Shown here piece after piece: positions 2,217 through 30,093 of a stretch of 64,000 bases of DNA. The position numbers and the translations under genes were made by a program. Positions within the stretch are counted from its first letter, which is position 1. The number at the start of each line of letters is the position of its first letter. Source of the stretch: an archaeon (GTDB lineage Archaea > Nanobdellota > Nanobdellia > Pacearchaeales > DTIR01); NCBI GenBank assembly GCA_043808285.1, contig JAZDFA010000007.1, positions 29,100-93,099 on the forward strand, given 5' to 3'. The notes under the pieces were generated by a model. The model had not been told where the DNA came from and did not search any database. It saw nothing but the letters and a program-made list of their open reading frames with translations.

Positions 2217-2336
2217 TAAAATTTCTTTTTTTCTTTTTCTTTATTTTTTAATATGTAAGACAGGTTTAGGTATTGAAAGCCTTAAAAAATAAACCAAACA
2301 CGAATGCCTGTCTGAGGCTTTTTATTTTTCGTTAAA

Positions 2337-3569
2337 TTACTTAATAAACAAAGAAACAATCATGAATATATTCACTGCTACCAGCAGGATAGTGCTTGCC
2401 ACTGCAATAATATTGGTCGTTTTAGTGTTTGCAAAATCTCCCATTATCTCCTTGTTGTTTACTAACCTTAACATTATTATCAATATCACTGGAAGCAATA
2501 CTCCATTTAATACCTGAGAAATGTACATCAGGAAAATCAGGGAGGAATTTGGAATCATTATTACTGCAGCACCTATTACTATTATTGCAGTGTAGAGCAG
2601 ATAGAATTTTTTTGCTTCGCTAAATTTGCGGTTTACTCCATTCTCCCAGCCAAATGCCTCACTTACAGAATATGCAGTTGAGAGGGGAAGTATCGATGCT
2701 GCAAAAATGCTTGCATTCAATAAGCCAAATGCAAAAAGATATCCTGCAAACTTTCCTGCCAAAGGGATTAATGCAACTGCCGCATCTGCGGCGTCAACTA
2801 TTTGCTTGTTGCTATGAAATATAGTAGACGCTGTTGAAAGGATTATAAAGTATGCAACAACTGCAGCAATAATGCATCCTACTATAACGTCTAATTTGCT
2901 GTACTTGTAATCCCTCCTCTTTATGTTTTTTTCAACAATTGAAGACTGCAGATAGAACTGCATCCAGGGAGCGATAGTTGTTCCTATCATTGCTATAATC
3001 ATTATAAAATAAGAAGAAGAAAACTGAAATGAAGGGATTATTGAATTGTAAGCCACTTCTTTCCAGTCGGGAGAAGACATGACTCCGGAAAATATGTAGC
3101 TTACATAGAAGATACATGCAAAAAGAAATATTTTCTCAACGGTTTTGTAAGTTCCTTTTACTACAATCCACCACACTAAAAGGGCGCATAATGGAACAGA
3201 AATATACCGGCTTATATGGAATATCTCACTTGCGGCAGCAATGCCTGCAAATTCTGAGATAGTGTTCATTATATTCACGATGACCAATGAAATCATAAGA
3301 TAAAATGTAATCTTTATGCCAAAGTTCTCCCTTATAAGATCTGCAAGCCCTTTGCCTGTTGCAACTCCCATTCTAGAACACATTTCCTGCACAACAACCA
3401 AAACGATTGTTATTGGAATAAGCACCCAAAGAAGGGTGTATCCAAAATTTGCCCCGGCCAAAGAATAAGTAGCTATCCCTCCGGCATCATTATCTACATT
3501 GGCAGTTATTATTCCTGGGCCGATTATTGCGAGAAAAAATAATAAATTTCTAATGTTTAATCTTGGCAT
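2337..3569 (-). CDS. NRAMP-family divalent cation transporter (NRMT-like)
   Basis: GPGIITANVDNDAGGIATYS; QEMCSRMG; GTTIAPWMQF; ~11 TM helices. Confidence 0.9.
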   Translation of the reverse strand: MPRLNIRNLLFFLAIIGPGIITANVDNDAGGIATYSLAGANFGYTLLWVLIPITIVLVVVQEMCSRMGVATGKGLADLIRENFGIKITFYLMISLVIVNIMNTISEFAGIAAASEIFHISRYISVPLCALLVWWIVVKGTYKTVEKIFLFACIFYVSYIFSGVMSSPDWKEVAYNSIIPSFQFSSSYFIMIIAMIGTTIAPWMQFYLQSSIVEKNIKRRDYKYSKLDVIVGCIIAAVVAYFIILSTASTIFHSNKQIVDAADAAVALIPLAGKFAGYLFAFGLLNASIFAASILPLSTAYSVSEAFGWENGVNRKFSEAKKFYLLYTAIIVIGAAVIMIPNSSLIFLMYISQVLNGVLLPVILIIMLRLVNNKEIMGDFANTKTTNIIAVASTILLVAVNIFMIVSLFIK

Positions 3570-4842
3570 TTTGTTTTCTTTTTCTCCTATACTTGGAAGG
3601 TATTCTCTGTTTTTTTATTCCCAATGGGAGCAATGCATTCAATGCATCGCTTATTCTTATAACCCCCACTATTGCTCCTGCTTTTGACACTACTGGAAGC
3701 GCAAGAAGCTTGTATTTGTTTAAAAGATTGAATGCCTCATCTAAGGGGGTCTGAACATCTAATGTAATCAAATTTTTTCTCAAAATTGCAGAAACTTTTG
3801 CATTTTTGTCTCCGATTACCAAATCCCTCAAAGAGAGTATTCCTACTAAATTGCCTTCCTTGTCACTAACATAAAAATAATGAATCTTGCTGGGCTTTGG
3901 CATCTTTTTTCTTAAAAAAGCTATTGTTTGAGATACTGTGAATGAGTCTGGGATAGTAAGAAACTCTGTGCTCATTATAGAGCCTGCTGTGCTTTTTTCA
4001 TAAGACAATATTTTCTGTATGTGGTACGCTGATTCTTTTTTCATTTTTTTGAGCACCTCTTCATTTCTTATTGAGGGCATTAATGTAAGAACAGCCGCTG
4101 CCTCGCTATAAGACATACTCTCTAGAATCTCTGCCAAGTTTTTAGAACTCATTGCCTTGAATACAGACCTCTTTATATCAGGATGAGAAACAATTAAGGT
4201 CTCTGCCGCCTTCTTCTTGTCTATTGAATTGAATAGGAATACTCTTTCATCCAATGAAAGGTCATTCATCATGTCTGCTATGTCTGCAGGATGCAAATCC
4301 ACCATCTTATCCATTTTGCATTTTACGTGCAGTTCACAGCTTCCAGAATTAAGAGGCTCTACATACTGCCAGGGGATTATATGCTCTTCTAGTATAGGTA
4401 TTAATTCTCCCAGGTATTTCCAAAAACCTAATCTTCTAAATATTCCTTTTGTGGAAACGTCAACACCCACAACGCAAAACTTGCCCTCTATCTCTCCAAG
4501 AAGTATGTCATTAACTCTTATTATTCTCACGCCGTCAACATCAACTATCTGCTTGTCCAGTATGCTGTTTAAAGATATGTCCTGCCTGTTAAGATATCTT
4601 AGGTCAGATTCAATTTCATTAAGGTACACCCCCACCTTAAATCTTGTATCATTAATCTTGTCTCCAATCTCGACAACATGATGCCATGGAATCTTTTTTA
4701 CCCCTTTTTTGGTTTGGCAGATTATTGCAGAAATCTTTGCAGATTTATAACCATCAATAAATGCCAAATCCCTGACTCTTCCTATGACCCTGAAATTCTT
4801 GTCTATAACAGGTTTTCCGATTAACTGGCTATAATACACCAT
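3550..4842 (-). CDS. MgtE intracellular-domain protein (PRC barrels + MgtE_N + CBS pair)
   Basis: LDKQIVDVDG..RVNDI; LHPADIAD; TAGSIMSTEF; two CBS domains; no TM domain. Confidence 0.88.
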   Translation of the reverse strand: MVYYSQLIGKPVIDKNFRVIGRVRDLAFIDGYKSAKISAIICQTKKGVKKIPWHHVVEIGDKINDTRFKVGVYLNEIESDLRYLNRQDISLNSILDKQIVDVDGVRIIRVNDILLGEIEGKFCVVGVDVSTKGIFRRLGFWKYLGELIPILEEHIIPWQYVEPLNSGSCELHVKCKMDKMVDLHPADIADMMNDLSLDERVFLFNSIDKKKAAETLIVSHPDIKRSVFKAMSSKNLAEILESMSYSEAAAVLTLMPSIRNEEVLKKMKKESAYHIQKILSYEKSTAGSIMSTEFLTIPDSFTVSQTIAFLRKKMPKPSKIHYFYVSDKEGNLVGILSLRDLVIGDKNAKVSAILRKNLITLDVQTPLDEAFNLLNKYKLLALPVVSKAGAIVGVIRISDALNALLPLGIKKQRIPSKYRRKRKQNAKIKH

Positions 4843-4947
4843 CTTTTCAAGCAAAAACTAATTGAAATTTGCCCCCGCTTTTTATATATTTTTCTACAAT
4901 CCTCAAAAGAAAAATATTTTAAAGCCATTTTTGTTGCTTTGTGGAAT

Positions 4948-5019
4948 GGACCCATGGTCTAGTGGCACGACGTCTCCTTGACGTGGAGAAGATTAGAGGT
5001 TCGATTCCTCTTGGGTCCA
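4948..5019 (+). tRNA. tRNA-Val(GAC)
   Basis: GGACCCA..TGGGTCC acceptor; TCTCC-TTGACGT-GGAGA anticodon arm. Confidence 0.95.
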
Positions 5020-5085
5020 TTTTTAACGAAAAAATATTAATTTTTCAGCAACATTTAAATATCACTTTGATGTGACTAAGATATA

Positions 5086-6963
5086 ATGTTGTCGTCCTCA
5101 AAAAAAGCACAAGTAACTATTTTTGTAATTATTGGAGTGCTCATAGTTTCAGCGGTGTCCTTATTCTTTTATTTCAAAACAGCTCCTTCATATGTCTCTG
5201 CAGAATTTAAGGAAGTTGAAACATATTTTACAGAATGCATCAATAATAACATAAAAGAAGGCTCTGCATTAATTGGATCTGGGGCAGGATACATAAATCC
5301 TCCTAAGTTTGAGAAAGGTTCAGAATACATGCCTTTTTCCTCACAACTTGATTTTTTTGGCAATGCGGTGCCTTACTGGTTCTATATCTCTGGAAATAAT
5401 ATAATGAAAGAACAAGTGCCTTCACTAAATGAAATGCAAAAACAGCTTTCTTCTTTTATTAATGGAGAAATAAAAAATTGTGACTTTAGTGTCTTTGAAA
5501 GCAGAGGATATAACATAACATTAGGAGAAGTAAAAAGCAGTGTTACGATAAAAGATGAGCAGATAGATGCAGAGATAAATGCTGCATTGGTAATAAATAA
5601 AGAAGAAAAAAGCGGGAGAATAACAAATCATAAAACCTCTCAAAAAACAAAACTTGGCAAATTTTACAAGATAGCCAGAGAGATATATGGAAAACAAAAA
5701 GAAGAGCTTTTCCTTGAAAATTATAGTTTAGATATACTATATCTATATGCGCCTGTGACAAAAGTAGAAATTTCCTGCAGCCCTAAAACTTGGATGAAGC
5801 AAACAGTGAAAGAAGATTTGAAGAATGCACTGCAGGCAAATATGGGGGCTATAAAGATAGAAGGTAGCTATTATCAAAATAAAAGAGATACTAATTATTT
5901 CATCGTTAAATCTCCCAAAAAAGTAAATGAGAATGTAAATTTCCTCTACTCTCCACTATGGGAGACGAAGATAGATATATGGGATGATAATGGAGACAGC
6001 GATACAATGATTGCAAAGCCTGTTGGGAATCAGAAAGGAATGGGTATCTTAGGATTCTGTTATGTTCCTTATCATTTTGTATATGATGTAGGATTCCCAG
6101 TAATGGTGCAGGTTTATGATGAAAAAGAATTATTCCAATTCCCAGTAGTAGTATACTTAGAAAAAAATAGCATAAGACCTAAATTGGAAGGAGAGGCAAT
6201 TCAAGAAACTGCAGGAATATGCGACAATAAAGTTACTGATGCATTGATAGCTACAATGGATAATGAAATGAAAGCAGTTGAAGCAGAAATCAAATATCAA
6301 TGCCTCAATGAAGTTTGTGATATTGGAAAGACTGCTATAAAAAATAATGAAGCGGTCCTTGAAACAAAAGTGCCTCAATGCATAGGCGGAACATTGATGG
6401 CTTCAGCAGAAGGATATTCAGATTCCCAATTAACAATAGATACAAATGAAGAGACAACTGCCGCCATAATAATGAACAAGATTTACACTCTTAATGTTGA
6501 TATTTTTGTTGGAGGTGTTCCACTTTCTGCTTCGCAAGAAAGCGCATTGATAACATTTGATTCAGGCGATGAAATAAAAACACTCTCTTATCCTTCTCAA
6601 AAAACAATAAAGCTCAAAGAAGGATATTATAATATCTCTGCAGAAGTCTACAGAACAGGCAATCTTGTAATAGGAAGTCAAAAAACAACCCAATGTGTGA
6701 AAGTACCAAAAACAGGAATGTTTGGATTTTTTGGAATGGAAGAGGAACAATGTTATGACATAGAAATTCCTTCTCAGAAATTAACACAGCTACTTGAAGG
6801 CGGCGGAAAAATACAAGATTATCATATTGGAGAAGACACTTTAAAAAACGCCAAAAAAATAGAAATAACAACAAGCATAATCCCCTTGCCAAAAACAATA
6901 ATGGACCTTCAAAATAGTTATGATAATGTTGAAAATAGCGAGATGGATATAAGGATTGTGTAA
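5086..6963 (+). CDS. Large class III signal peptide (pilin-like) surface protein
   Basis: N-terminus KKAQ-VTIFVIIGVLIV (prepilin-peptidase-type site plus hydrophobic helix); beta-rich C-terminus with paired Cys. Confidence 0.75.
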   Translation: MLSSSKKAQVTIFVIIGVLIVSAVSLFFYFKTAPSYVSAEFKEVETYFTECINNNIKEGSALIGSGAGYINPPKFEKGSEYMPFSSQLDFFGNAVPYWFYISGNNIMKEQVPSLNEMQKQLSSFINGEIKNCDFSVFESRGYNITLGEVKSSVTIKDEQIDAEINAALVINKEEKSGRITNHKTSQKTKLGKFYKIAREIYGKQKEELFLENYSLDILYLYAPVTKVEISCSPKTWMKQTVKEDLKNALQANMGAIKIEGSYYQNKRDTNYFIVKSPKKVNENVNFLYSPLWETKIDIWDDNGDSDTMIAKPVGNQKGMGILGFCYVPYHFVYDVGFPVMVQVYDEKELFQFPVVVYLEKNSIRPKLEGEAIQETAGICDNKVTDALIATMDNEMKAVEAEIKYQCLNEVCDIGKTAIKNNEAVLETKVPQCIGGTLMASAEGYSDSQLTIDTNEETTAAIIMNKIYTLNVDIFVGGVPLSASQESALITFDSGDEIKTLSYPSQKTIKLKEGYYNISAEVYRTGNLVIGSQKTTQCVKVPKTGMFGFFGMEEEQCYDIEIPSQKLTQLLEGGGKIQDYHIGEDTLKNAKKIEITTSIIPLPKTIMDLQNSYDNVENSEMDIRIV

Positions 6964-6964
6964 A

Positions 6965-9900
6965 ATGAAAAAAATGTTGGTCATGTCTGGAATAGTAATC
7001 ATCCTTCTAGCATGTGCAGTAGTAAATGCACAGCAGTATTTTGCTCCAAGTCCTCTCTCTTATTATTCAGGGAATATTAATAATTATTGGCCTTCATATG
7101 GGAAAGAAGAATGCACTGCAAGGCAGGATTTTATAGTCCAGATAATGCCTGGTGGATGTTCTCCAGCTGTAGTAAGAAGCGATTTGCTTGAAGAGCAAAA
7201 TGTTCCTGTTTTCTGCCAATTGACAGGGATTAAGATTAATCCCCTTATACAAGTACCAAAAATAACAAGTATTAGCATAGGGAGAAATAATATGTCAAAA
7301 GACATTGCAGGTATCGGATTTCACCCAGCAAGAGCTGCATTAAGGACTAATGGCAATGAGCTTACCGGTTCCCCGATCATAAATAATTGGGGATATCTTG
7401 TAGTGATTTTAAAGAAACAGCCAATTGAAAAAAATATGAGTAAAACCGTTGAAGCAAGCCTTAATGCAGTAATACAATATCAAGCGGAAGAAACATTTGG
7501 CATTGGAAAAGCATCTTTCATAAGCCCCCAGATAAGCGACGAACTATGGCAACAAAACTACAAACAGTATGGATTCTGGAAGGGAAAGGGATATGTAAGA
7601 GTAAGTGAAATAGGAAGTGATAGCCAAGGAGAATTTGCAAGAGTTGATATTTATCTTGATGCAAATAGGAAACTTACTTCATTATTAATAAGAGAAGGGC
7701 AAACATACCCTCAAGATGTTTATTTGCCCGGATATTATTGCCAAGCTGCATTGAAAGTTGCTGTAGAAGGAATTTCTTCTGAACCAAAACCTAAGGCAAA
7801 AATAAGTGTAAACAATGAAGTTATGTGGGTCTCACAGGGCCAAAAGATAGCAGAAGATAAATGCACTGTTAATACAGTTGAGCAGGACATTTATGGAAGC
7901 GGGCAAGTTGAGATAAGATGCCCAGATAAATTGCACAAGCTTTTACTAAATCCTGCCAAGGCAACTCTTTCTTTTGAAATAAATGGAAAAGAGACAGAAA
8001 AGACAGTTGGAGTGAAGGAGATCATTGATAGCGGAACTGGCGCATTTGTCGCATTTATAGGAGATACTGGCAAGGCAGCAAATGATAAGATACGTGGGAT
8101 AAATAAACAATTTATAGTAATTGGAAAACCAAATAACATTATAATGACTGACACCCATTATGACTTGATAAGCTTCAAGACAAGAAAGATTATTGAGGGG
8201 GATAAATTTAATGGATTTGGTAAACTAACTTCCCAAAATGCGCTCTCATTCTTAGCTAACTTAAAGAATCTATTTAATGTGGGAGATAAAGTCCCAAACA
8301 TTGCAGAAAATGATGATTTTGATGCCGCTAAAGCACTCACTGAAACAGAGTTTAAGGCGCAACTTGCAGCAAAACTTAAAAAACAATTTGGCGACAAAAT
8401 AGAATTTGAGGTATCAATGCAGGAAGAGAAAAAAGATTCTTTGTTTGGAAATAAGATAATAGAAAATTTCATATTCAAAGGATTGGAAAGTTCATATGAT
8501 AGAGAATACAGTCAAGACATTGGTTCAGTAATGGAAGAAAATTACAAAAATGCAATTGAGGAATATAGGAATATACAGACCAGCTATGGAGAAGAGAAAT
8601 CAACATATGAGGAAGGTTGGAAAGATGAGCCTATTGGAGCCCAAGCGTTGTATAGTGCTGCGCAACTCGCAAGATATCTAGAAAAATTCAAGACAGAAGC
8701 AGAAATTTTAACAGAACTTGTTGAAAAATACCCAGATTCAAAAATCTCAGAAGATGCATTAATCCATCTTCAAACATTAAAACAAAATGACATGACTAAT
8801 GCTGTTTCAACTGCATTCATAAGTGGCAAGTCTTACTCTATGGCTCTTGAAGAAGTTAAAGATGTAAGCCTTAATGATAAAGGCGTAACTTTATTGGTAA
8901 ATGGCAATCAGGGAAAATACACTGTTGGAGATATAATCTGGGAAGATGTAGTGATAAAAGATATTAAGGATGAGTATATCACTATAGAAAGCAAAACTTT
9001 AACGATAAGCAAGCCTGCACTAAAAAAGAAAGATGTCATAAATATCCCATATAAGGCAAAAAAGGCAGACGCAAAGGGAGATATTATAGAAACACCAGAA
9101 ACAATTACTGTACAAGTAGTAGATATAATGCTTGTGAAAGAAGCTAGGATAAAACTTACCCCCTTGGTTGAAAGGACAGAAACACAAACAAACTTTACAT
9201 TCAAAATAGGAATAGAGAAAAGAGCATTAAAATTAAGCGATGCCAAAGCAAAAGAAATAATAACCGAACTTGATGCCACAATAGCCCAATGGAAAAAGCT
9301 TAACAATGACCTTGGAAATCTGATAAAGGCATGGAAGGGAACATGTTTTATAACCTCTACATACCTGATTGGGCAAAGCTTCTTCTCAAGCTTTGGCGGA
9401 GGAAGCAGTGCAAGAAATAAAGTAATGAGGGGGGGTGGAGGATGGTGGGAAAAGTGCACCCAATTAGTCAATGAAGACCCTAAATACAACAAAGATGTTC
9501 ATAAATGCCTTGCAGAAAATAACGATGAGATAGAACAAGAAGTAAGTGTAATGAAAAACAGTCTTGGTAATGTAGATGCAAAGGTAAAGGCTACTACAAA
9601 AATGGTGCAAGGTAGTAACCTTCTAGCCAACATGAAAGACACAAAGGCTTCAACAGCAGCTTATGGTGCAGACATAAAAACAAGATATGCTAGACAGGGA
9701 ATGGATCTCTCTGACACTTTCAAAAAAGAACAATTTGATTATGTAATAAATAATATAGATAAGAGTGGGGCGTATAGCTCTGACTTAAAAGAAATTGATT
9801 TATGGACTGGAGTTTATAATGACCCTAAATCCACCACCGATCAAAAAGAGCAGGCGAAAAAGAAACTACTCTCAATAATGGAACCAATGAAAAGCGATGT

Positions 9901-12900
9901 GGATGGGGCCTTGCAGATAGAAAAAAGTAATGAGATTGATAAACAAAATGGTGTTTCTGATGAATATGCAAAATTTGATCAGGTTCCAATATTGGAATTG
10001 AAAGATACGCTAAAAACAGCTAATATAATAGAAACAGAAACCAAGACACTAGTAATAAAAAAACTAAATGGCGAAGAAAAAAGGAGGAATACTCCTGAAA
10101 ATAAAGAGATAATCCAATATACCAGACAATCTACATCTTTAGGCAAACTTTATATCATCGGAACTCTAAGCGGAGGCCAACTTGCAAGCAATGAAATATA
10201 TCATTATGTTAGTGCGGATAAAACTACAGTGTATTTAACTGAATTATCTGCAGATGAAAAGAAACAGATTCCTGGGGGAATTATTGTAAAACAATTAACT
10301 GCTAAAGATTTAAGTTGCAACAATGTATACAAAAATCCAGAAGTAAAATTCCATGAGAAAGCGCCAGATACTGGATTCCCAGCATTAGTTCCATTAGATA
10401 AAGAAAAAGGATGGTATGTAGCAACAAAACCTGCTGGAATGGGAATCCAATCATATGAATCTTCTGGAAAGATTGTGAGCTTTTGGATATGCAATGTTGG
10501 TGCAAATGGACTTGCAGAATTCTTTAATAATGAAAAAGATGACAGATACTGCAGACAATTTAATTTAGATATTGAAACAATTGACAATAAAAATCTGGGC
10601 ACGATTGGATGTCTTACTGAGAAGGAAACTGCAATATTAGTAAACCATGCACAAGAGGCATTGCGCATTGCGGCTGAAAGGTATGCGAATGGAATTACAA
10701 GCATGAATATTGACGGATTTGGGAATATTCCTATCTCTGCTCCGCCAACAATCACTCCCTCAATTGAATGTGAAGATTTCATGTCTGCAAAGAATTGCAA
10801 TCTGATGTTTAATGTATGTGACCCGGTATTATGCCCTTCAAGCAGATGCAATTATGGGGGAAAATATACTGTTCCAGATGTGGTGCAAACTGGAGTGGTT
10901 GGGGGGATGCTTTTATGCCTGCCAAACTTTGGGAAACCTTCTGAGGGGGGGGTTGCAGTTCCAGTATGTCTATCAGGAATACATGCAGGACTTGAAAATT
11001 ATATAATGATATTAAATGCAACAAAACAATGTCTGCAAGAACAAATAAAAAGTGGGAGAACTGTAGGTATATGCGACCAAATACAATCTGTTTATCTTTG
11101 CGAGTTTTTTTGGAAACAGGCAATGCCTTTGATGAAAATAGGGGTGCCTCAGTTAGTACAGTCCGTATTTGGGAGAGGCGGCGTTGGAGGTGGAGGAGAA
11201 TATATGGATGCTCAAGGTGCATGGACAAATCTTGAAAAATCTACAAATTACTTCACAAATTATTATGGAGTCAATGCATTCAAAGCATTCCAAATGAGGA
11301 GCACAGAAGAAGTTGGAACAGAAGTGTGCAGATCATTCATATCAACAAGGTATCCTACTAGCGCTGATGGATTCAATAAACTTCTAGAACCAGAATCTCC
11401 GACACAATTCACTGCTAAATTCTCAGAGATTGTGATTACTGATGCCACTGTTCCTGCAACATCTCAGTATAAAGTGTATATCTGGGTCTATGCTGGAAAA
11501 GACCAAGGAATTTATTATGATGTATACTTAAAGGGTGCACCAACTACTGCATACTATCAATCTTTAGGCCAAATGCAAGTTCCTGGAGCAGTGGGATATA
11601 TCCCTACAGGGGAAAAAGTAGACCAGACAATAGATTTTACAGGACCTGCAGGGTACAAGGAATTATGTGTAAGAATCAACAATCAGGATAAATGCGGATT
11701 TACACAAGTAACTACTGACTTCGGAGTTGAAGAAATAAAGAATCTCTATCTTAAAGAGCAGGCAACAAATATTATAGAGACAGAAGAAGAATGCATATCT
11801 GGAACACCTACTGTAACTCCAATGATGCAATTAAACATCCAGCAAGGAGTTGAAGAATCTCTAAATCCCCAGATATACAAGCAGGGGATAATAAGAATCT
11901 GTTCTTCAGAAAATCCTGCCAAAACAACTCATCCAAGCAGATATGTTGAAGTTGGCTACTGCACAGACAAGAGCATAAAATGCTGGCTAGATGGAAAATC
12001 TGTAAATCAAAGCATCAGTGATTTAGGACTGGCAAACGAAACATTGGATACTGCGAAGGAATTGATTAAACAGATAGATGCCGAGGGATATCTCACACAA
12101 GACCAGGCTAAGGATAAATTCACTGAAATAGATAATCTAAAGGGAGAGGATAAAAGCAATGTGGGGCTAATGAAAAAAATAGCTCTAGAAGTAGGAACGA
12201 TAAGGAACCAATATAAAATAAGCAAATTAGATACAATGCCTAGCAGAGAAATAAGTGCTAAGATTGATGAGATTATCACGCCGATAATTTCTAGATATAG
12301 AAATATAATTGAAAAATCAATTACAAATGACAATAAAATAAAAGCAAATTTTGAGATTGCCAAGATTTACAATGCAATTACAAAATATCTATATGATGAC
12401 CCAGAAAACAAATTCAAGAGCCAAGCACAAACGCCTGTAGAAAATAAGCCTATTAGCAGTAAGAATATTTTAGATTTGACCAAGATAGTATTTGGTCAGA
12501 GAATAAGTGTTAGTGAGAGCGGACTGAGTGAGGAAGTAATCGTAACAGACATTAGTGGTCTTAGTAAGGGCACATTCTTGGCAAAGGGAGTAACCAGCAA
12601 CACCCTATGGAGATATACATATGACGGTGTAACAAAAACTGGAAGTTGGAACCAAGAAACTGTTACAGCAGCAAATAAACAAGAAATAGAGCAAACAACT
12701 GCAAGAAGTTATGATATAAATCTTGACAAGATGAATAGAGTTACTGTAACATTTAACAAAGATGAGAAGAAGACTCTGCTTTTTAATAAGAATGGATATG
12801 ACGTTTCTGTTGATTTTAGTGGATGGGGGGCAGCAAATGCTCAAAACAAAGCAGTTATTTTATTTAATTCAAAAACATTATCAATTACCTCTACAAAATT

Positions 12901-13582
12901 AGTAGAATATGATTTAGATGGGGACAATAAAAAGGACATAGGAGTAGATGACACTGGAAGGAGCTTTAAATCAGGCTCATACATCTCTCTTATTTTTACA
13001 AGATTAAGCAAAATAAGTTCTAAATGCAGCGAATGCAATGGATTTTTTGCGTTCTGCAGTATGGCACAATGTCATGATAAAGGAGAGTGTTATGTTAATT
13101 ATAATCCTAGTTTCTGGAAAAGTTCAAATACTGATTATGAATGTTTAAGTTGCTGGGAAGACAAAGTAGTAAATTGTAATTTATTTAACAATCTGGATGA
13201 ATGTGAGAACAATAAATGCGGGATATCCGGATGTTTATGGGCTAATGGAAAATGCCAATTAGAATCAGAAAAGCAAGAGCAAATAATCAGCACTGCAAAA
13301 GATTGTGCAAAATGCGGTGCAGGATTGTTCAATGTATGCAATTCAGCAGAAAAATGTAGAGGTCTTGGAAGTTGCTATACTAAGATAGTTGGTGGTTTCC
13401 TTGGATCTTACAACTGTTTAAACTGCGATACAAATACTAAATGCAGCAGTTTAGAAAGAGAAGACGAATGCACATGGAATAAATGCAACCTTGACTGCCT
13501 ATGGGCCGATAACAAAGGATGCCTTTCTGACGAACAGATAGATATCGAAGTGGAAGCTGAGGATAAATGGGGTTATATTTAA
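6965..13582 (+). CDS. Giant (~2200 aa) secreted Cys-rich surface protein
   Basis: Signal peptide; TPR-like ALYSAAQL..ELVEKYPDS; Cys clusters (CDPVLCPSSRC); two C-terminal Cys-rich repeats. Confidence 0.85.
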   Translation: MKKMLVMSGIVIILLACAVVNAQQYFAPSPLSYYSGNINNYWPSYGKEECTARQDFIVQIMPGGCSPAVVRSDLLEEQNVPVFCQLTGIKINPLIQVPKITSISIGRNNMSKDIAGIGFHPARAALRTNGNELTGSPIINNWGYLVVILKKQPIEKNMSKTVEASLNAVIQYQAEETFGIGKASFISPQISDELWQQNYKQYGFWKGKGYVRVSEIGSDSQGEFARVDIYLDANRKLTSLLIREGQTYPQDVYLPGYYCQAALKVAVEGISSEPKPKAKISVNNEVMWVSQGQKIAEDKCTVNTVEQDIYGSGQVEIRCPDKLHKLLLNPAKATLSFEINGKETEKTVGVKEIIDSGTGAFVAFIGDTGKAANDKIRGINKQFIVIGKPNNIIMTDTHYDLISFKTRKIIEGDKFNGFGKLTSQNALSFLANLKNLFNVGDKVPNIAENDDFDAAKALTETEFKAQLAAKLKKQFGDKIEFEVSMQEEKKDSLFGNKIIENFIFKGLESSYDREYSQDIGSVMEENYKNAIEEYRNIQTSYGEEKSTYEEGWKDEPIGAQALYSAAQLARYLEKFKTEAEILTELVEKYPDSKISEDALIHLQTLKQNDMTNAVSTAFISGKSYSMALEEVKDVSLNDKGVTLLVNGNQGKYTVGDIIWEDVVIKDIKDEYITIESKTLTISKPALKKKDVINIPYKAKKADAKGDIIETPETITVQVVDIMLVKEARIKLTPLVERTETQTNFTFKIGIEKRALKLSDAKAKEIITELDATIAQWKKLNNDLGNLIKAWKGTCFITSTYLIGQSFFSSFGGGSSARNKVMRGGGGWWEKCTQLVNEDPKYNKDVHKCLAENNDEIEQEVSVMKNSLGNVDAKVKATTKMVQGSNLLANMKDTKASTAAYGADIKTRYARQGMDLSDTFKKEQFDYVINNIDKSGAYSSDLKEIDLWTGVYNDPKSTTDQKEQAKKKLLSIMEPMKSDVDGALQIEKSNEIDKQNGVSDEYAKFDQVPILELKDTLKTANIIETETKTLVIKKLNGEEKRRNTPENKEIIQYTRQSTSLGKLYIIGTLSGGQLASNEIYHYVSADKTTVYLTELSADEKKQIPGGIIVKQLTAKDLSCNNVYKNPEVKFHEKAPDTGFPALVPLDKEKGWYVATKPAGMGIQSYESSGKIVSFWICNVGANGLAEFFNNEKDDRYCRQFNLDIETIDNKNLGTIGCLTEKETAILVNHAQEALRIAAERYANGITSMNIDGFGNIPISAPPTITPSIECEDFMSAKNCNLMFNVCDPVLCPSSRCNYGGKYTVPDVVQTGVVGGMLLCLPNFGKPSEGGVAVPVCLSGIHAGLENYIMILNATKQCLQEQIKSGRTVGICDQIQSVYLCEFFWKQAMPLMKIGVPQLVQSVFGRGGVGGGGEYMDAQGAWTNLEKSTNYFTNYYGVNAFKAFQMRSTEEVGTEVCRSFISTRYPTSADGFNKLLEPESPTQFTAKFSEIVITDATVPATSQYKVYIWVYAGKDQGIYYDVYLKGAPTTAYYQSLGQMQVPGAVGYIPTGEKVDQTIDFTGPAGYKELCVRINNQDKCGFTQVTTDFGVEEIKNLYLKEQATNIIETEEECISGTPTVTPMMQLNIQQGVEESLNPQIYKQGIIRICSSENPAKTTHPSRYVEVGYCTDKSIKCWLDGKSVNQSISDLGLANETLDTAKELIKQIDAEGYLTQDQAKDKFTEIDNLKGEDKSNVGLMKKIALEVGTIRNQYKISKLDTMPSREISAKIDEIITPIISRYRNIIEKSITNDNKIKANFEIAKIYNAITKYLYDDPENKFKSQAQTPVENKPISSKNILDLTKIVFGQRISVSESGLSEEVIVTDISGLSKGTFLAKGVTSNTLWRYTYDGVTKTGSWNQETVTAANKQEIEQTTARSYDINLDKMNRVTVTFNKDEKKTLLFNKNGYDVSVDFSGWGAANAQNKAVILFNSKTLSITSTKLVEYDLDGDNKKDIGVDDTGRSFKSGSYISLIFTRLSKISSKCSECNGFFAFCSMAQCHDKGECYVNYNPSFWKSSNTDYECLSCWEDKVVNCNLFNNLDECENNKCGISGCLWANGKCQLESEKQEQIISTAKDCAKCGAGLFNVCNSAEKCRGLGSCYTKIVGGFLGSYNCLNCDTNTKCSSLEREDECTWNKCNLDCLWADNKGCLSDEQIDIEVEAEDKWGYI

Positions 13583-13596
13583 CAAGGTTGATTAAA

Positions 13597-14841
13597 ATGC
13601 AAAAAAATGCTTCATTTGCAGGATTGATTTTTTTTTCAACCATGGTTATGGTGTTGCTTATAACAATCGCATTGATAGATTCAAAACCAACTATCAGCGG
13701 CTATGCAGCTTCTTCATTAAATACTATTGACTCAATAAGCTATTCTGCTTCTGAATTTCAAAATGCGCAATATGAGGCAGATTATAAATCGAAAAAAAGC
13801 ACTTATGAGATTGTAGATAAATATGCAGAACAATATGACATAAGCTTTAATCTTGTTCGCGCAATAATCAGAATGGAAAGCTCCTGGAAGCATACTACCT
13901 CTCCAAATAACAAGGGAGCTGTGGGAATAATGCAGCTTAGAACTACTGCAACAGATGACATGAGAAATGAAGAGGGAGCATGTTCTGATTTTTGCCGCAA
14001 TCTTAAAGTAGATAGAAATAATCTTGATGATAATATTCATGGAGGAATTTGTTATCTTGCATGCCAAAAAGAAAGGTTTGGAATCTATAACAGCCCAAAA
14101 CTTATTATCGCGGCATATAAGGAAGGTCCAAGTGCAGTAGACAAAAAATGCATAACCTGCTGGTTTTGCAAGCAAAAAACATATGATGTTTGCACTAGCA
14201 AATTAGACAGCATAACAGTAGATTATGTCTCAGATGTTGCAACAGGTTATGAGGATTATGCCTCAAACTCCCAGATGGAAAACAATAAAGACATTGCCTC
14301 AGGTTCAAAGATAGTGGTAGTAGATGCAGGGCATGGGGGCAAAGATACTGGAGCGACAAGCTCTTCAGGATATCCTGAAAAAACAGTGACTCTTGCTATC
14401 GCCAAAGAGCTTGAAACTCAGCTTAAACAGCAGGGAATCAATGTCATAATGACGAGGAATTCAGATGTTTATCCTACCCTGACTGAAAGGGTTGAAATCG
14501 CAAATAGCAACAATGCAAACCTATTCATTAGCATTCATGCAAATTCTGCCAAAACAAAGCCATGCTCTGCAAATGGTCCTGAAGTCTGGTCTTATGATTC
14601 TGCAAAAAGCAAGGAGATGGCAAAATCAGTTGTAGATGAAATAAGCACTGCCTTGAATGCCAATAACCGAGGTACAAAAACAACCTCAAATCTTTATGTA
14701 CTCAAAAAAACAAAAATGCCTGCGATACTTGTTGAAGTGGGGTTCATATGCAATCAGGGAGATTTTAATATAATCACAAATCCTTCAAAGCAAAGACAGA
14801 TTGCTGCTGCGATTTCCCAATCAGCAAGCATGTATGCATGA
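13597..14841 (+). CDS. Membrane-anchored lytic transglycosylase (SLT) + N-acetylmuramoyl-L-alanine amidase (Amidase_3) fusion
   Basis: SLT motifs AIIRMESS, GAVGIMQL, NIHGGICYL, AAYKEGP; amidase motifs VVDAGHGG, EK, FISIHAN, PAILVEVGF; N-terminal TM. Confidence 0.92.
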   Translation: MQKNASFAGLIFFSTMVMVLLITIALIDSKPTISGYAASSLNTIDSISYSASEFQNAQYEADYKSKKSTYEIVDKYAEQYDISFNLVRAIIRMESSWKHTTSPNNKGAVGIMQLRTTATDDMRNEEGACSDFCRNLKVDRNNLDDNIHGGICYLACQKERFGIYNSPKLIIAAYKEGPSAVDKKCITCWFCKQKTYDVCTSKLDSITVDYVSDVATGYEDYASNSQMENNKDIASGSKIVVVDAGHGGKDTGATSSSGYPEKTVTLAIAKELETQLKQQGINVIMTRNSDVYPTLTERVEIANSNNANLFISIHANSAKTKPCSANGPEVWSYDSAKSKEMAKSVVDEISTALNANNRGTKTTSNLYVLKKTKMPAILVEVGFICNQGDFNIITNPSKQRQIAAAISQSASMYA

Positions 14842-14904
14842 TTTTTTCTTAGAATAAAGATTATTTGGAAGTGAATTTAAGCAACACCCGCGGATTATTC
14901 CAAA

Positions 14905-16209
14905 CTAATTATTCCATAATTCTGACTTATAAAGATAATAGACCTTTTTTAGCTGCCTAAGAAAATTATTCTTCCCATTGCCCAGACTGCATATCCCGAG
15001 ATATTCCTCATTGGGGTTAATAAAATTCTTCATCCTTTTCTTTAATTCCTCCTCGCTTATATTGGGGCTGCCCTGCTTTATCAATTCTATATCAAAAGCA
15101 TCATGCTCCAGGGGGTCTGTGGTTTTCCACCATTCATCTGTCCATTCAAATATAACTCCTCCTAGGGAATTCCTATTTCCAGAACCCGCAAAATTTGATG
15201 AAATAGTCTTCCAGCATCTTGAATGTATCTCTGCCTGTATGCTCTCATCCTCTTCAAGTTTCCCATTATTATATGAAGAAGTTCCATATTCTGTGATTAT
15301 AACCGGTTTGCCAATATTTTTTTTTACAGCAGAAAATAATTGGTTACCTGCCTTATCAAGATCAAATGCATTTGCCCCGAATATATCTATATCTGGGATA
15401 TATTTTGCCATGGCTCCCACGAAATGCGTGCTTGTATTACAGAGTATTACTGGATGTTTTTTGTCATTCTTGTGTATAACCTTTGCCACATCATTTACAA
15501 AAGAATAATATTCTTTAGGATAGATTGCTGCATTTGTTCTTGTTCCCATATGAGTATTTTCATTTCCAAGAACCCATCCAAGCACGAATGGCTCATTCTT
15601 ATAAGATTTTACTATTGAAATTACCTCTTCAAGCATCTTTTTTTTATGATCTGGATTTGTGTAATCTGTTCCTTCTTGCCATGATGCTCCAGAACCTTTA
15701 GTGTAAGCGCCGAGATAATCCCCAACAAGAACCATGACGCCATACTTTTTATACAAGTCATTAAGCGTCTTTTTTGATTCCTCTTCACTAAAATCTCTTA
15801 TGTGGTAGATTCTTATTGTATTGACGCCCATTTCCTTCATTATAGAGAAATCCCCCTTACGAGGTTCATTCACATCCTGTACATTGTTTTTGTTGGCATC
15901 AATAAATGATTCGTAAGGTGCGTTCGCTTTGCCATTTTTGTCAGAATCCTCGTTCATCCAGTCAAACCTTACTATCTGCGGGGAATATCCCGGCGGGGTT
16001 GGTTCGTATACCATTCCCTTGACTATGTATCTCTTTTTGTTGACAAAAAGATTCCAGTCATCCTTTATTTTTTTGACCTCTACATATGATGGTTTAGTTT
16101 CAATATACTTTCTGATGCTTAGAGTGCTACACCCATTAAGAAGAACAATTGAAAAAAGACCTACACCTAAAACACATTTTGCTATAAGAGACTCCAGATT
16201 TTTTCTCAT
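14905..16209 (-). CDS. Clan GH-A (GH2-like TIM barrel) glycoside hydrolase, lipoprotein-like
   Basis: MGVNTIRIY; WVLGNE (acid/base); IITEYG (nucleophile); FEWTDEWWK; lipobox-like LLNGC. Confidence 0.85.
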   Translation of the reverse strand: MRKNLESLIAKCVLGVGLFSIVLLNGCSTLSIRKYIETKPSYVEVKKIKDDWNLFVNKKRYIVKGMVYEPTPPGYSPQIVRFDWMNEDSDKNGKANAPYESFIDANKNNVQDVNEPRKGDFSIMKEMGVNTIRIYHIRDFSEEESKKTLNDLYKKYGVMVLVGDYLGAYTKGSGASWQEGTDYTNPDHKKKMLEEVISIVKSYKNEPFVLGWVLGNENTHMGTRTNAAIYPKEYYSFVNDVAKVIHKNDKKHPVILCNTSTHFVGAMAKYIPDIDIFGANAFDLDKAGNQLFSAVKKNIGKPVIITEYGTSSYNNGKLEEDESIQAEIHSRCWKTISSNFAGSGNRNSLGGVIFEWTDEWWKTTDPLEHDAFDIELIKQGSPNISEEELKKRMKNFINPNEEYLGICSLGNGKNNFLRQLKKVYYLYKSELWNN

Positions 16210-23489: not shown

Positions 23490-23900
23490 TTATTTAATAT
23501 TCAAAAAGAACTCAATGAATAACTGAACAACAAGCACAATAATTGTTAGTATCAGGAAGATAATATAATTTATTTTTACCTTTGAGATAATTATAGAGTT
23601 TAGTAATATATTAACTTCCTCTAGGTCCTTCCTGCTAAGTTTTTTGCTCCTAATTTTTTCCCTTAGTTTGTTATTGATGATTAGGTCTTGTCTCCTATCT
23701 TCAACATATATGCGGTAGGTATAGAATACGGCTGAAAGCAACATTGCAGAATACCAGGATACACTTGCATAAAATGGATTGATTTTTGTAAGGGGAAGAA
23801 CTAAACGCAATCCTAATGCACTAAGTATCCCCAAAGACATAAAAATAACAGAGAACGGTCTGCTCTTTTTGCCCAGTACACCTTCATATTCTTTATACAT
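23490..23900 (-). CDS. Hypothetical membrane protein
   Basis: Three TM segments. Confidence 0.65.
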   Translation of the reverse strand: MYKEYEGVLGKKSRPFSVIFMSLGILSALGLRLVLPLTKINPFYASVSWYSAMLLSAVFYTYRIYVEDRRQDLIINNKLREKIRSKKLSRKDLEEVNILLNSIIISKVKINYIIFLILTIIVLVVQLFIEFFLNIK

Positions 23901-23905
23901 TTGGA

Positions 23906-23976
23906 TGGACCCACCGGGAATCGAACCCAGACCTCAAGACTGCCAGCCTCGCATTCTACCGTTGAACTATGGGCCC
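23906..23976 (-). tRNA. tRNA-Ala(GGC)
   Basis: GGGCCCA/TGGGTCC acceptor with G3:U70; loop CTGGCAG. Confidence 0.95.
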
Positions 23977-24084
23977 TTGATGCTTAAGGGAAAAGAAAAC
24001 TCTTTATTAAGTTTGCCATTTTTATGGGCAAACGTTTATATAGAAAATGCAGTTCTTATTAAAAAAGAGGATAAAAAGAAAAAG

Positions 24085-25083
24085 ATGATTGTAAAATCTA
24101 TTGCGCCTTCAAGGGTTGATTTTGCAGGAGGTACCTTAGATATCCCATTATTTGCAGAAAAAGAGGGAGGATGCACGCTAAACTGTGCAGTGAAGAAATA
24201 CAGCTACGTTGACATACATCCGATAAAACAGCATGCAACGATAATTAATTCCATTAATTACAAATCAAAAATCCAGATTATAGATGGCAAAATAATTTAT
24301 GATGGGGAAACAGACCTCCTAAAAGCGGCAATAAAAAGAACTTCTTTTTTTGAGGATGTTGAAATAAAAATAAGGCATGAATTGCCACCACATTCAAGAC
24401 TTGGAACATCCTCCTCCGTTGGAGTAGCATTGATTTCTGCAATATATAAATATCAGGGGAAAAAAATAGAGAAAAATAAGGTGGCAGATTTAGCAACAGA
24501 CTTGGAGATAGAAGAATTAGGATTGCGCAACGGACCTCAAGACCAATATGCTGCGGCCATTGGAGGTATAAACTTTCTCAAATTTGATGGAAAATCCGTT
24601 AAAGTGGAAAAGCCCAAAGTGAGCAAAGATACAATAAAAGAATTGGAAAGAAGAATGATTTTATGTTACTGTGGGCAGGCAAATGTTTCTGGGGACATGA
24701 ACAAGAGAGTAACTGACGGCTATATTAATGGCAATAAAAGAATAAATGATGCACTTCATGAGATAAAAGAAATAACAATTGAAATGAAAGAGCACCTCAT
24801 CAAAGGAAATACCCAAGAATTTGCTTTCCTCTTAAATGAAGAAAGATTAAACAGGGAAAAGCTAGATAAAGACATCTCAAAAGGGCTTGCAAAATTCATA
24901 TACCTGGGAATGAAAAATGCGGATGCAGCCAAGATTCTTGGAGCGGGATGCGGCGGAACATTGCTGTTTTATTCTAAAGAAAAAAAGCTAAATGAACTGA
25001 AAAAGTCTTTAATAAAATCTGGAGGAATTGTCTTCCCTTTCAGATTTGATTTTGAGGGTGTAAGAGCCTGGAAAATTAAATAA
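24085..25083 (+). CDS. GHMP-family sugar kinase (heptose-7-phosphate kinase-like)
   Basis: APSRVDFAGGTLD; PPHSRLGTSS; GPQDQYAAAIGG; KILGAGCGG. Start taken at MIVKS. Confidence 0.88.
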   Translation: MIVKSIAPSRVDFAGGTLDIPLFAEKEGGCTLNCAVKKYSYVDIHPIKQHATIINSINYKSKIQIIDGKIIYDGETDLLKAAIKRTSFFEDVEIKIRHELPPHSRLGTSSSVGVALISAIYKYQGKKIEKNKVADLATDLEIEELGLRNGPQDQYAAAIGGINFLKFDGKSVKVEKPKVSKDTIKELERRMILCYCGQANVSGDMNKRVTDGYINGNKRINDALHEIKEITIEMKEHLIKGNTQEFAFLLNEERLNREKLDKDISKGLAKFIYLGMKNADAAKILGAGCGGTLLFYSKEKKLNELKKSLIKSGGIVFPFRFDFEGVRAWKIK

Positions 25084-28629: not shown

Positions 28630-30093
28630 TTAAAGAATACTCTTTATTTTATCAACAGAAACCCTTTCCTGCTTCATGCTGTCTCGCTCTCTTATTGTGA
28701 CAGTGCAGTCCTGCATTGTCTGCGTGTCAATTGTGACGCAGAAAGGAGTTCCAACCTCATCCTGCCTTCGGTACCTTCTTCCTATGCTGCCAGAACTGTC
28801 ATAGAATGCAGTGCAGAACTGCTTTAGAATATTATATATCTCTTCGGCTTTGCCATCCATTCCGTCCTTGTTTACAAGAGGGAAAACTGCTATGTCTATT
28901 GGTGAGATAACTCTTGGAAATTGGAAGAGGTCTCTTTCCTGCTCTAGCTCTTCCTTGTAAAAGATATCCAAAAAAGCCCAGATATTTCTATCAACTCCAA
29001 AGCTTAGCTCAAGAACATGAGGGATGAATTTTTTCTCATTGAAAAAAATCTCTAAATTTTCTTTTGACTGCTTTGCGTGTCCTACTAAATCATGGTCTGT
29101 CCTATAATGTAAGCCAGCTATTTCCTTGAATCCGCCAAGAGTTTCAAGCTCAAGTTCAATATCCCAATGAATCTTATTGTAAAATGCCCTTTCTTCCTCG
29201 TTTAATTCCCTGAACCTAAACTTGCTTTTTGGAATTTTTAGGATATCAAGATAAAACTGCTGTATTTTGGCCATGTGATAAACATAAAACTTTGGAATTT
29301 TCATTTTTGCATTTGCATCATCACATTTTACTTCCATGATTTCCTGCTTGCAGGCTTTAAGTATCAATGAATACTCTTTGATAGAATCCCACTTATTTTC
29401 CTCTATCTTGTCTATATCTGCCGGGTCAAAAAAAATCTGGAGTTCTGCCTGTGTAAATTCTCTTAGTCTGAAAAACATCTGCCTTGGAGAAATTTCATTG
29501 CGGTATGCCTTGTCAATTATTGCTAATCCAAGTGGTAATTTTTTTCTTGTTGCCTCAAATTCCTGCTTGAAAAGAAGATAAGCTGCTTGAGCTGTTTCAG
29601 GACTAAGATATGCTTTTTCATCATTAAATCCTACAGTTAATGGAAACATCATATTAAACCATCTTACTTCTGATAACTCTCCCCCACACCTAGGGCATTT
29701 GAATTTCTTTTCTTTTATTACTGCATTCATCTGCTCCACTGTAAATGAATCATTAAATGCCCCTTTATCTTCCAGAAACTGGTCTGCTCTGAATCTAAAA
29801 TTGCACTTTTTGCATTCTGTCATGGGGTCATTGAAATTCTCTACATGACCTGATGCAATAAAAACATCTGCCGGCAGTATGTTGTTGCTTTGCACTTCGT
29901 AAAAATTGTCATTCAATCCAAGAAAGTATTTTCTCCATGTGTTTTCAAACCTATTTTTTAGAAGCTTTCCCAAGTGGCCATAGCTAAAGAATCCTGCTTT
30001 GCCCCCATAAATTTCTGCTGTCTGGAAAAAAAATCCCCTTTTGGAGGCTATTGTTGTTATCTTTTCTGCTTTGTTTTCTTTTCTTTCAACCAT
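28630..30093 (-). CDS. glyS: Glycine--tRNA ligase (alpha2 type)
   Basis: RNEISPRQ..RLREFTQAE; SFGVDR; SGSIGRRYRRQDEVGTP. Confidence 0.96.
   Translation of the reverse strand: MVERKENKAEKITTIASKRGFFFQTAEIYGGKAGFFSYGHLGKLLKNRFENTWRKYFLGLNDNFYEVQSNNILPADVFIASGHVENFNDPMTECKKCNFRFRADQFLEDKGAFNDSFTVEQMNAVIKEKKFKCPRCGGELSEVRWFNMMFPLTVGFNDEKAYLSPETAQAAYLLFKQEFEATRKKLPLGLAIIDKAYRNEISPRQMFFRLREFTQAELQIFFDPADIDKIEENKWDSIKEYSLILKACKQEIMEVKCDDANAKMKIPKFYVYHMAKIQQFYLDILKIPKSKFRFRELNEEERAFYNKIHWDIELELETLGGFKEIAGLHYRTDHDLVGHAKQSKENLEIFFNEKKFIPHVLELSFGVDRNIWAFLDIFYKEELEQERDLFQFPRVISPIDIAVFPLVNKDGMDGKAEEIYNILKQFCTAFYDSSGSIGRRYRRQDEVGTPFCVTIDTQTMQDCTVTIRERDSMKQERVSVDKIKSIL

Follow-up and report, generated by a model that had tools for sequence, protein, structure and literature searches.

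An apparently intact two-domain murein hydrolase of a Pacearchaeota-like archaeon is a fission derivative of the giant SLT protein family

Introduction

Giant proteins that carry a transglycosylase (SLT) domain and reach up to 3000 residues have been described from Pacearchaeota and Woesearchaeota as family fam00969 (Castelle et al. 2021, PMC8204110). Such proteins had been noted earlier in the genome AR20 and were taken up again as a 'large lytic murein transglycosylase', with an argument for predation (Vigneron et al. 2022, PMC9723730); in the excerpts consulted, both papers propose a role on the bacterial cell wall. Here we analyze a 64,000-nucleotide (nt) stretch of archaeal DNA, hereafter the window (positions 29,100 to 93,099 of contig JAZDFA010000007.1, GenBank assembly GCA_043808285.1), in which a gene at 13597-14841 encodes a 414-residue protein combining an SLT domain with an Amidase_3 domain. 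The gene lies directly behind that of a giant secreted protein, and we show that in relatives the two form one polypeptide, the hydrolase being its lytic end.

To our knowledge, no host is known for any Pacearchaeota or Woesearchaeota, and murein-specific surface enzymes in murein-less archaea are among the few sequence-level clues to physical contact of some of these abundant archaea with bacteria. A GH25 lysozyme of Aciduliprofundum was reportedly described by Metcalf and colleagues in 2014. A peptidoglycan hydrolase of Halogranum salarium with M23 and PG_binding_1 domains was shown to kill bacteria, and the survey in that study detected such genes in 175 archaeal genomes out of 3706, with Nanoarchaeota prominent among them (PLoS Biol 2025, PMC12352652).

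The hydrolase and its active sites

The gene and its two domains are placed as follows:

13597..14841, + strand: SLT + Amidase_3 murein hydrolase, 414 residues (reading of the open reading frame (ORF), Pfam, alignment, fold model)
13747..14283, + strand: SLT domain, lysozyme-like, GH23-type, residues 51-229 (Pfam, alignment, model); codon of E94 at 13876-13878
14311..14835, + strand: Amidase_3 domain, residues 239-413; codons of H246 at 14332-14334, E261 at 14377-14379, H314 at 14536-14538 and E380 at 14734-14736

Pfam assigns residues 73-184 to SLT (PF01464; E 3.5e-12, 46.4 bits where the cut-off is 21.3) and residues 240-408 to Amidase_3 (PF01520; E 1.8e-55, 188.1 bits where the cut-off is 27, with positions 1-170 of the 174-position profile aligned); SLT, SLT_4 and Amidase_3 are the only families that it finds in the protein. 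A first-pass annotation, made from the letters of the DNA, had named the SLT glutamate in RMESS together with GIMQL and AAY, and four Amidase_3 residues in DAGH, EK, SIHAN and LVE. We recovered every one of them: the SLT half contains RMESS (E94-S95), GIMQL (residues 110-114) and AAYKEG (172-177), and the amidase half contains DAGHGG (H246), PEK (E261), SIHAN (H314) and LVE (E380). These catalytic motif residues are invariant in all six aligned sequences, which are the window protein, three stand-alone homologues and two fused forms. H246, E261, H314 and E380 are the same as the aligned residues in the solved amidases 5emi, 1jwq and 4rn7, while the ES, G.MQ and AY..G signatures line up with IESS, GLMQ and AYNGG of the MltC entry 9vi7. 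We take the Glu of the E-S pair to be the single catalytic residue of the SLT domain, accompanied by G-L/I-M-Q and A-Y-N-x-G, and the His-Glu-His set and the last Glu to be the zinc ligands and the catalytic residue of Amidase_3, respectively.

The AlphaFold2 model of the hydrolase (71 sequences) has a mean predicted local distance difference test score (pLDDT) of 90, with residues 51-229 mostly above 90, and consists of a helix (residues 7-27), a disordered link (30-41), an all-alpha domain (51-229) and an alpha/beta domain (239-413). Fitted onto CwlV (1jwq) and AmiC2 (5emi), the amidase half gives template modeling (TM) scores of 0.91-0.94 and root mean square deviations of 1.2-1.4 Å, and Foldseek places the SLT half with Slt, MltE, MltC and MltF (probability 1.00, E 1e-4 to 7e-4). 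The amidase is compact and has no counterpart of the ~50-residue insert seen in AmiA/B/C, aligning end-to-end with the 179-residue CwlV and with AmiA over 224 columns. The NCBIfam models for CwlD, AmiA, AmiB, AmiC and MltC match below their equivalog cut-offs only, indicating that the hydrolase belongs to both superfamilies and is an orthologue of none of the named enzymes. CwlD (TIGR02883), the name that one source gives to the homologue P0002, was accordingly set aside at 144.9 bits against a cut-off of 221.55. Both active sites look catalytically competent, and from the domains, residues and folds we infer a real, well-preserved and apparently intact bifunctional murein hydrolase.

The cassette in fused and split form

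The hydrolase gene is preceded on the same strand by the gene of the giant, from which it is separated by a short spacer:

6965..13582, + strand: giant secreted Cys-rich surface protein, 2205 residues from the ATG, or 2208 residues from a TTG at 6956
13583..13596, + strand: intergenic spacer of 14 nt from the TAA of the giant to the ATG of the hydrolase, containing AAGGTTGAT

In a search of 40 relatives, residues 19-413 of the hydrolase matched within open frames of 2523 and 2396 residues in two genomes belonging to the same family (G004 and G003, respectively), and the amidase half also matched inside frames of 2843 and 2707 residues in another family. Over their first ~2080 residues, the fused proteins of G004 (2512 residues) and G003 (2392 residues) run colinear with the window giant at 40-41% identity, and giant and hydrolase taken together are colinear with these whole proteins. 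The lytic part, which we call the cassette, is 40-45% identical over ~395 residues to their C-terminal ~400 residues; in the G004 protein, Pfam places SLT and Amidase_3 there, between residues 2165 and 2508 of 2512. In two further genomes the giant contains, according to Pfam, Peptidase_M23 and Amidase_3 (G024) or Amidase_3 alone (G039). In these two proteins, encoded at 7509-15998 (-) of locus L012 (G039) and 2321-10441 (+) of L013 (G024), the amidase is internal (residues ~2070-2280) and is followed by some 430-560 residues without a Pfam family, so the variable region can hold more than recognized enzymes.

Stand-alone proteins of this kind are rare. A collection of 5.8 billion proteins yielded only three others of near length with both domains (83, 63 and 62% identity), and all four of the stand-alone proteins, at 62-83% identity, share a hydrophobic N-terminus. 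In a tree of 15 cassettes they form one clade (support 100/100) on a long stem, nested among the fused forms. P0004, one of the four, and the domain-less 2168-residue giant P0294 each derive from a 30486-base contig. Two further candidates, P0121 (400 residues) and P0123 (396 residues), start with an acidic linker and have no hydrophobic leader; we therefore took them as probable fragments of fused giants. The recurrence of the split with a leader in four proteins and their single clade point to one inherited fission rather than an assembly error, and we read the split as one old event carried by this four-protein clade.

Common descent of the window cassette with that of the fused giants is indicated by the sequence identity, by the nesting in the tree, by the relatives of the SLT half and by a monophyly of the amidases that was not rejected (see Discussion). 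The SLT half is remote from bacterial SLT domains (phmmer against PDB, E 0.038), and only 13 of 1.84 billion representative sequences match it at E <=1e-10; its nearest relatives are the C-termini of giants, nine of the hits listed being giants of the family or fragments of them. A single polypeptide of ~1600-3000 residues with the core and a C-terminal lytic domain, as is typical of fam00969, is not what the window encodes. Its hydrolase is thus a fission derivative of the giant SLT family and not a canonical member. The two-in-one enzyme of the first-pass annotation keeps its two competent-looking halves, but it is not a self-contained enzyme, being the detached C-terminal cassette of its neighbor.

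Signals around the gene and the N-terminal leader

The following elements flank the gene or lie at its N-terminus:

13615..13677, + strand: N-terminal hydrophobic helix, residues 7-27, after K-N-A/S (alignment, hydrophobicity, model)
14842..14850, + strand: T-rich tract TTTTTTCTT right behind the hydrolase stop, like an archaeal terminator (sequence reading only)

The ORF begins with the ATG at 13597 and ends with a TGA at 14841, immediately followed by TTTTTT. The Shine-Dalgarno-like AAGGTTGAT of the spacer lies 5 nt before the ATG, and a start equivalent to 13597 is used by all three of the closest homologues. An alternative ATG upstream, at 13567, would run into the preceding gene. The giant and hydrolase ORFs, 14 nt apart, are in different reading frames.

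At the place of the hydrophobic helix, the fused forms have an acidic linker. The leaders of the three stand-alone homologues read KKG/S, MRG/T and NKG/S, each followed by ~20 hydrophobic residues. A short charged leader ending in K/R-G/A before ~20 hydrophobic residues is what we take to be the archaeal class III signal motif, and a prepilin peptidase (Peptidase_A24) is encoded in the genome. The N-terminal helix may act as a signal of the pilin type or may anchor the protein in the membrane. Judged from these leaders, the cassette seems, once split off, to have taken on one of the same kind as that of the 625-residue protein encoded before the giant.

The SLT stretch contains eight cysteines, where 115 short SLT stretches that do not belong to cassettes have a median of 1 and at most 7, in agreement with the earlier remark on extra cysteines in this half. 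The SLT stretch of the fused giants contains four to six; C133, C152, C188 and C199 are confined to the split clade. The amidase half has a conserved pair, C323 and C385; in total the protein contains 10 cysteines. That the enrichment is an adaptation to the archaeal surface, as was also proposed, is a guess.

The giant carrier, its partner and the variable lytic end

The giant and the gene before it have the following parts:

5086..6963, + strand: 625-residue partner, pilin-like (class III) N-terminus KKAQ/VTIFVIIGVLIV, no Pfam family
10343..12406, + strand: conserved core of the giant, residues 1130-1817
13013..13537, + strand: two ~90-residue repeats in tandem, each containing 12 Cys, which form the C-terminal end of the giant immediately ahead of the split

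The giant, whose database copy P0270 has 2205 residues, has a Sec-type signal, its only hydrophobic segment being N-terminal, and is composed of 2.5% Cys; no Pfam family matches it. Its core was modeled by AlphaFold2 at a pLDDT of 71, the invariant Cys-rich part remaining below 50, and Foldseek against PDB returned nothing at E <=0.001, only generic beta-sandwich rows. The most invariant stretch of the order-wide core, 10757-11392 (+), is rich in invariant Cys and Gly, includes a GGGEY motif and was modeled poorly (pLDDT 32-56).

Both Cys-rich repeats match a single copy in G003, and 24 Cys lie within residues 2000-2200 of the giant. For these repeats and for the 625-residue partner, Pfam (E <=5) gave chance-level rows only, and the best Atlas value, 0.76, was below a meaningful level. 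A complex prediction of the last 389 residues of the giant with the ectodomain of the hydrolase scored 0.00 (mark 0.32), which says nothing either way. A 217-base contig from a sediment metatranscriptome (RNA) library matches 13034-13243, in the Cys-rich end, at >=99% (1 difference), too little for calling transcription.

The partner has one hydrophobic segment, at its N-terminus. In all four of the relatives' loci examined, the order is an ORF of 620-650 residues, the giant and, further on, TFB; the ORF directly before the giant (619-648 residues) starts with K-[AG]-Q-V-T-[IL]-F-[VI]-I-I, presumably the class III signal of archaeal type IV pilins.

The core was found in 280 of 301 sampled genomes of the order (Pacearchaeales), including 77 of the 82 high-quality ones, almost always in single copy, at 41-52% identity and in open frames of ~1600-2850 residues. 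It is a core gene of the order. A protein collection held 1210 relatives of the giant, and the Pfam domains on record for the best 120 of these show the following cargo:

No recognized cargo domain: 91 of 120 giants
SLT: 8 of 120
SLT + Amidase_3: 7 of 120
Phage-tail lysozyme (PF18013): 5 of 120
Amidase_3: 2 of 120
Trypsin-like: 2 of 120
PF18013 + Amidase_3: 1 of 120
M23: 1 of 120
GH3 + SLT: 1 of 120
DUF2272: 1 of 120
TPM: 1 of 120

Murein-lytic domains are thus present in 25 of these 120, and cargo domains are C-terminal of the core wherever this was checked. At least five murein-specific enzyme families occur at the same position in this one giant family. Across the order, SLT is found in 125 of 301 genomes, in at least 40 of them in frames of at least 1600 residues, and Amidase_3 in 29 of 301, in eight of them in frames of more than 2000 residues.

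The host genome and its lack of murein genes

The 15 contigs of the genome sum to 865 kb; completeness is 86% and contamination 0.14%. Source records call the relatives of the giant 'Candidatus Pacearchaeota archaeon' or 'Nanoarchaeota archaeon', and the host is a Pacearchaeota-like DPANN archaeon, not a methanogen. In this 86%-complete genome we found no MCR_alpha (McrA), no Mur_ligase_M, no transpeptidase of the penicillin-binding protein (PBP) type and no FtsW/RodA; Mur ligase was also not found in the four relatives G003, G004, G024 and G039. The pseudomurein of methanogens, which the first-pass annotation had used as its frame, is therefore not a relevant background.

Two matches to Peptidase_M23 lie outside the window in the same genome, at 20450-20770 of contig C3 (E 2e-21) and 127784-128056 of contig C7 (E 8e-8), in frames of 157 and 383 residues; no murein genes were found in this genome, as said above. 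They may be further wall-cutting enzymes, and as such would add cross-link cleavage.

Other features of the locus

A 434-residue TIM-barrel glycosidase is encoded at 14905-16209 (-), convergent with the hydrolase gene, with a lipobox-like N-terminus VLLNG/C. It has weak Pfam matches to GH2_C, GH72 and GH5, and its best solved relatives are the uncharacterized 6pal (E 3e-10) and the GH158 entry 9oro (E 4e-8). The gene was found in none of the 40 relatives searched and so was probably acquired recently, by insertion between the hydrolase gene and a tRNA-Leu. Elsewhere in the window, a tRNA-Ala (GGC) at 23906-23976 (-) lies within the 5' part of a 434-residue ORF at 23779-25083 (+), which has a TTG start and a GHMP-kinase domain at residues 183-263; the true start of this ORF is probably downstream of the tRNA.

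Discussion

We consider it likely, from sequences and models, that the hydrolase is the wall-cutting tip of a surface apparatus acting on the peptidoglycan of a contacted bacterium. Its three parts would be the pilin-like 625-residue protein, the giant secreted protein and the murein-lytic cassette. The giant has an N-terminal signal only, which puts the cassette end of the relatives farthest from the N-terminus, and in these relatives the giant would hold the cassette at that far end. In the window lineage, the cassette has been separated by one fission and is still encoded 14 nt behind the giant, and its own helix would keep the enzyme at the archaeal surface. The enzyme would be exported and work outside the cell, where the SLT domain would cut the bond between N-acetylmuramic acid (MurNAc) and N-acetylglucosamine via E94 with a 1,6-anhydro product, and the zinc amidase (H246, E261 and H314, with E380 as general base) would strip the stem peptides. 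Together these cuts could open a local hole in the wall of the touched bacterium, which might serve attachment, access to the contents of the bacterium, or killing. A producer that makes no peptidoglycan needs no immunity protein, and this may account for the free swapping of the cassette among relatives.

The lack of murein and pseudomurein genes in our searches and the occurrence of at least five murein-specific families at one position point to the peptidoglycan of touched bacteria as the substrate. Bacterial peptidoglycan, already suggested in the first-pass annotation, is the most likely target and the most plausible substrate on this evidence. More tentatively, and at present doubtfully, the order-wide giant and its pilin-like partner might form a contact apparatus whose far end is an exchangeable enzyme slot, holding SLT, Amidase_3, M23, phage-tail lysozyme or GH3 and sometimes a protease, with the cassette of the window lineage riding on a pilus-like fiber. 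If this were true, a large part of the Pacearchaeota would live on or prey on bacteria, not archaea, and a cassette with a pilin leader, mounted on or beside such a fiber, would amount to a new mode of wall-hydrolase deployment.

Several observations weigh against a contact-dependent attack on bacteria by this apparatus. Cultivated DPANN archaea all have archaeal hosts, as stated in the consulted part of PMC11291902. The 91 of 120 closest giants without a recognizable lytic domain suggest that the main job of the giant may not concern bacteria at all. Pfam finds no peptidoglycan-binding domain (LysM, SH3, PG_binding, SPOR, AMIN and others) in the hydrolase, and none in the Cys-rich end of the giant, whereas a known domain of this kind belongs to the definition used in PMC12352652; the tandem Cys-rich repeats could be the missing wall-binding module. 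The leader of the window protein, K-N-A instead of the K/R-G of its homologues, makes pilin-type processing least certain for this very protein. In public reads, two sediment runs contained only 5% of the sampled words; their contigs cover 12818-13243, within the Cys-rich end of the giant, and leave the junction and the hydrolase gene without cover.

The phylogeny of the amidase half alone is a further point on this side. Separate phylogenies of the two domains had been proposed at the outset, and this half was given its own tree, while the affinity of the SLT half to the giants' C-termini comes from the search described above. The amidase tree has 117 rows, leaving aside P0001 (the window protein), P0275 (identical to G003) and P0125 (a fragment of P0126), as well as stretches of fewer than 140 profile positions, by which G039, P0279 and P0308 were removed. 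When free, it sets the split clade apart from the fused giants, with a support of 69 at the base. A tree constrained to monophyly of the cassette amidases was slightly better and was not rejected (p 0.6 in the approximately unbiased test), for a group of 14 rows that was picked after the tree had been seen and that is without the long-branched G024 and P0276. As the base of the tree is not resolved, no bacterial donor can be named.

Among other explanations, we regard a scavenging role as unlikely, although it has the most to recommend it: the enzymes would digest the peptidoglycan debris of dead bacteria for amino acids and amino sugars without an attack on living cells. Attack and scavenging would involve the same enzymology, DPANN genomes are without many biosynthetic routes, and dead-bacterial peptidoglycan has been proposed as an amino-acid source for Pacearchaeota in the excerpt consulted (PMC11537232). 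We did not find LdcA (Peptidase_S66) or the anhydro-MurNAc kinase AnmK in the 86%-complete genome, a weak argument, and a tether to the cell or to the end of a 2000-residue surface protein is better suited to contact than to digestion in bulk; neither argument settles the matter. Much less probable is a pure adhesion module, in which the domains bind the glycan strands of the partner cell and leave them uncut. The wording 'attachment to bacterial cell walls' in the excerpt of PMC8204110 is compatible with it, as is the lack of a separate binding domain in the hydrolase (Pfam), but the catalytic residues of both domains are invariant in fused and split forms across 40-83% identity, which would be unexpected for binding alone.

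SLT and Amidase_3 enzymes in bacteria act mostly on the wall of their producer, and an autolysin that remodels a polymer resembling murein or pseudomurein, belonging either to this archaeon or to an archaeal host, would follow this precedent. We consider such a role very improbable: searches of the genome recovered neither a Mur-type ligase nor a PBP or SEDS protein, those of the four cassette-carrying relatives gave no Mur ligase, and pseudomurein has neither MurNAc nor its lactyl-L-Ala bond. That the gene is contaminating bacterial or phage DNA, or the split a product of assembly, is hardly to be expected either, even though both domains are typically bacterial or phage-borne and two ORFs in different frames lie just 14 nt apart. 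The first-pass annotation had named near-identity to a bacterial gene as the sign of contamination. The best match outside the small family of the hydrolase has at most 48% identity and covers the amidase half only, the 200-kb contig carries archaeal neighbors (TFB, ribosomal protein S8e, LSM), the GC (guanine-cytosine) content is even across the window, and the contamination estimate is the low value given above. Three other proteins, 62-83% identical, show the same split together with a hydrophobic leader.

A wall-cutting tip directed at bacteria thus remains our preferred reading, and the split form makes it accessible to experiment. The stand-alone tip is small and easily expressed (414 residues, ~370 without the leader, with two catalytic domains), allowing direct tests on sacculi that are impossible with fused proteins of 2000-3000 residues, and the split itself marks where the carrier ends and the cargo starts. 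We rate the finding as moderately interesting, chiefly because a small construct can test the published hypothesis of DPANN archaea acting against bacteria.

Comparison with known systems

The giants sharing the core with the window neighbor are named 'transglycosylase SLT domain-containing protein [Candidatus Pacearchaeota archaeon]' by their sources, and the fam00969 giants resemble the present system in lineage, carrier core, SLT clade and proposed target, bacterial murein. They differ in that the lytic part in the window is a separate 414-residue gene with its own hydrophobic leader and an added Amidase_3 domain; the excerpts of the fam00969 papers mention the transglycosylase domain alone, and their supplements may list more. 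An amidase companion, exchangeable lytic ends, a pilin-like neighbor and a split form were not found in literature searches, which covered papers without their supplements.

The hydrolases treated in PMC12352652 are, as far as the consulted part goes, likewise wall hydrolases of bacterial type in archaea without murein, but they are small and diffusible and combine a catalytic with a known wall-binding domain, while the window protein is without a known binding domain and is predicted to be part of a giant surface apparatus. CwlV of Paenibacillus polymyxa (1jwq) and AmiC2 of Nostoc punctiforme (5emi) share 36-40% identity, the four active-site residues and the compact build without a regulatory insert with the window amidase. 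Both are bacterial enzymes acting on their own wall, whereas the window amidase has the Cys pair C323/C385 and is joined to an SLT domain. Slt70/Slt (5ohu), MltC (4c5f/9vi7) and MltE (4hjy) have the same lysozyme-like fold and the E-S, G-x-M-Q and A-Y-x-x-G motifs, from which the window SLT domain is set off by its distant sequence and its eight cysteines.

Bacterial polymorphic toxins and contact-dependent delivery proteins such as CdiA and Rhs, said to have been treated by Zhang and colleagues in 2012, offer a parallel of organization: a long conserved carrier whose C-terminal effector varies from one close relative to the next. We found no relation to them in sequence or fold, no immunity gene is expected here, and the effectors cut walls instead of being intracellular toxins.

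The central idea, that these giants act against bacteria, has thus already been published; new are the split, the added amidase, the extra cysteines and the pilin-like leader. As a fission product with a pilin-like leader and eight cysteines in its SLT half, the window hydrolase adds a new architecture to a known DPANN family.

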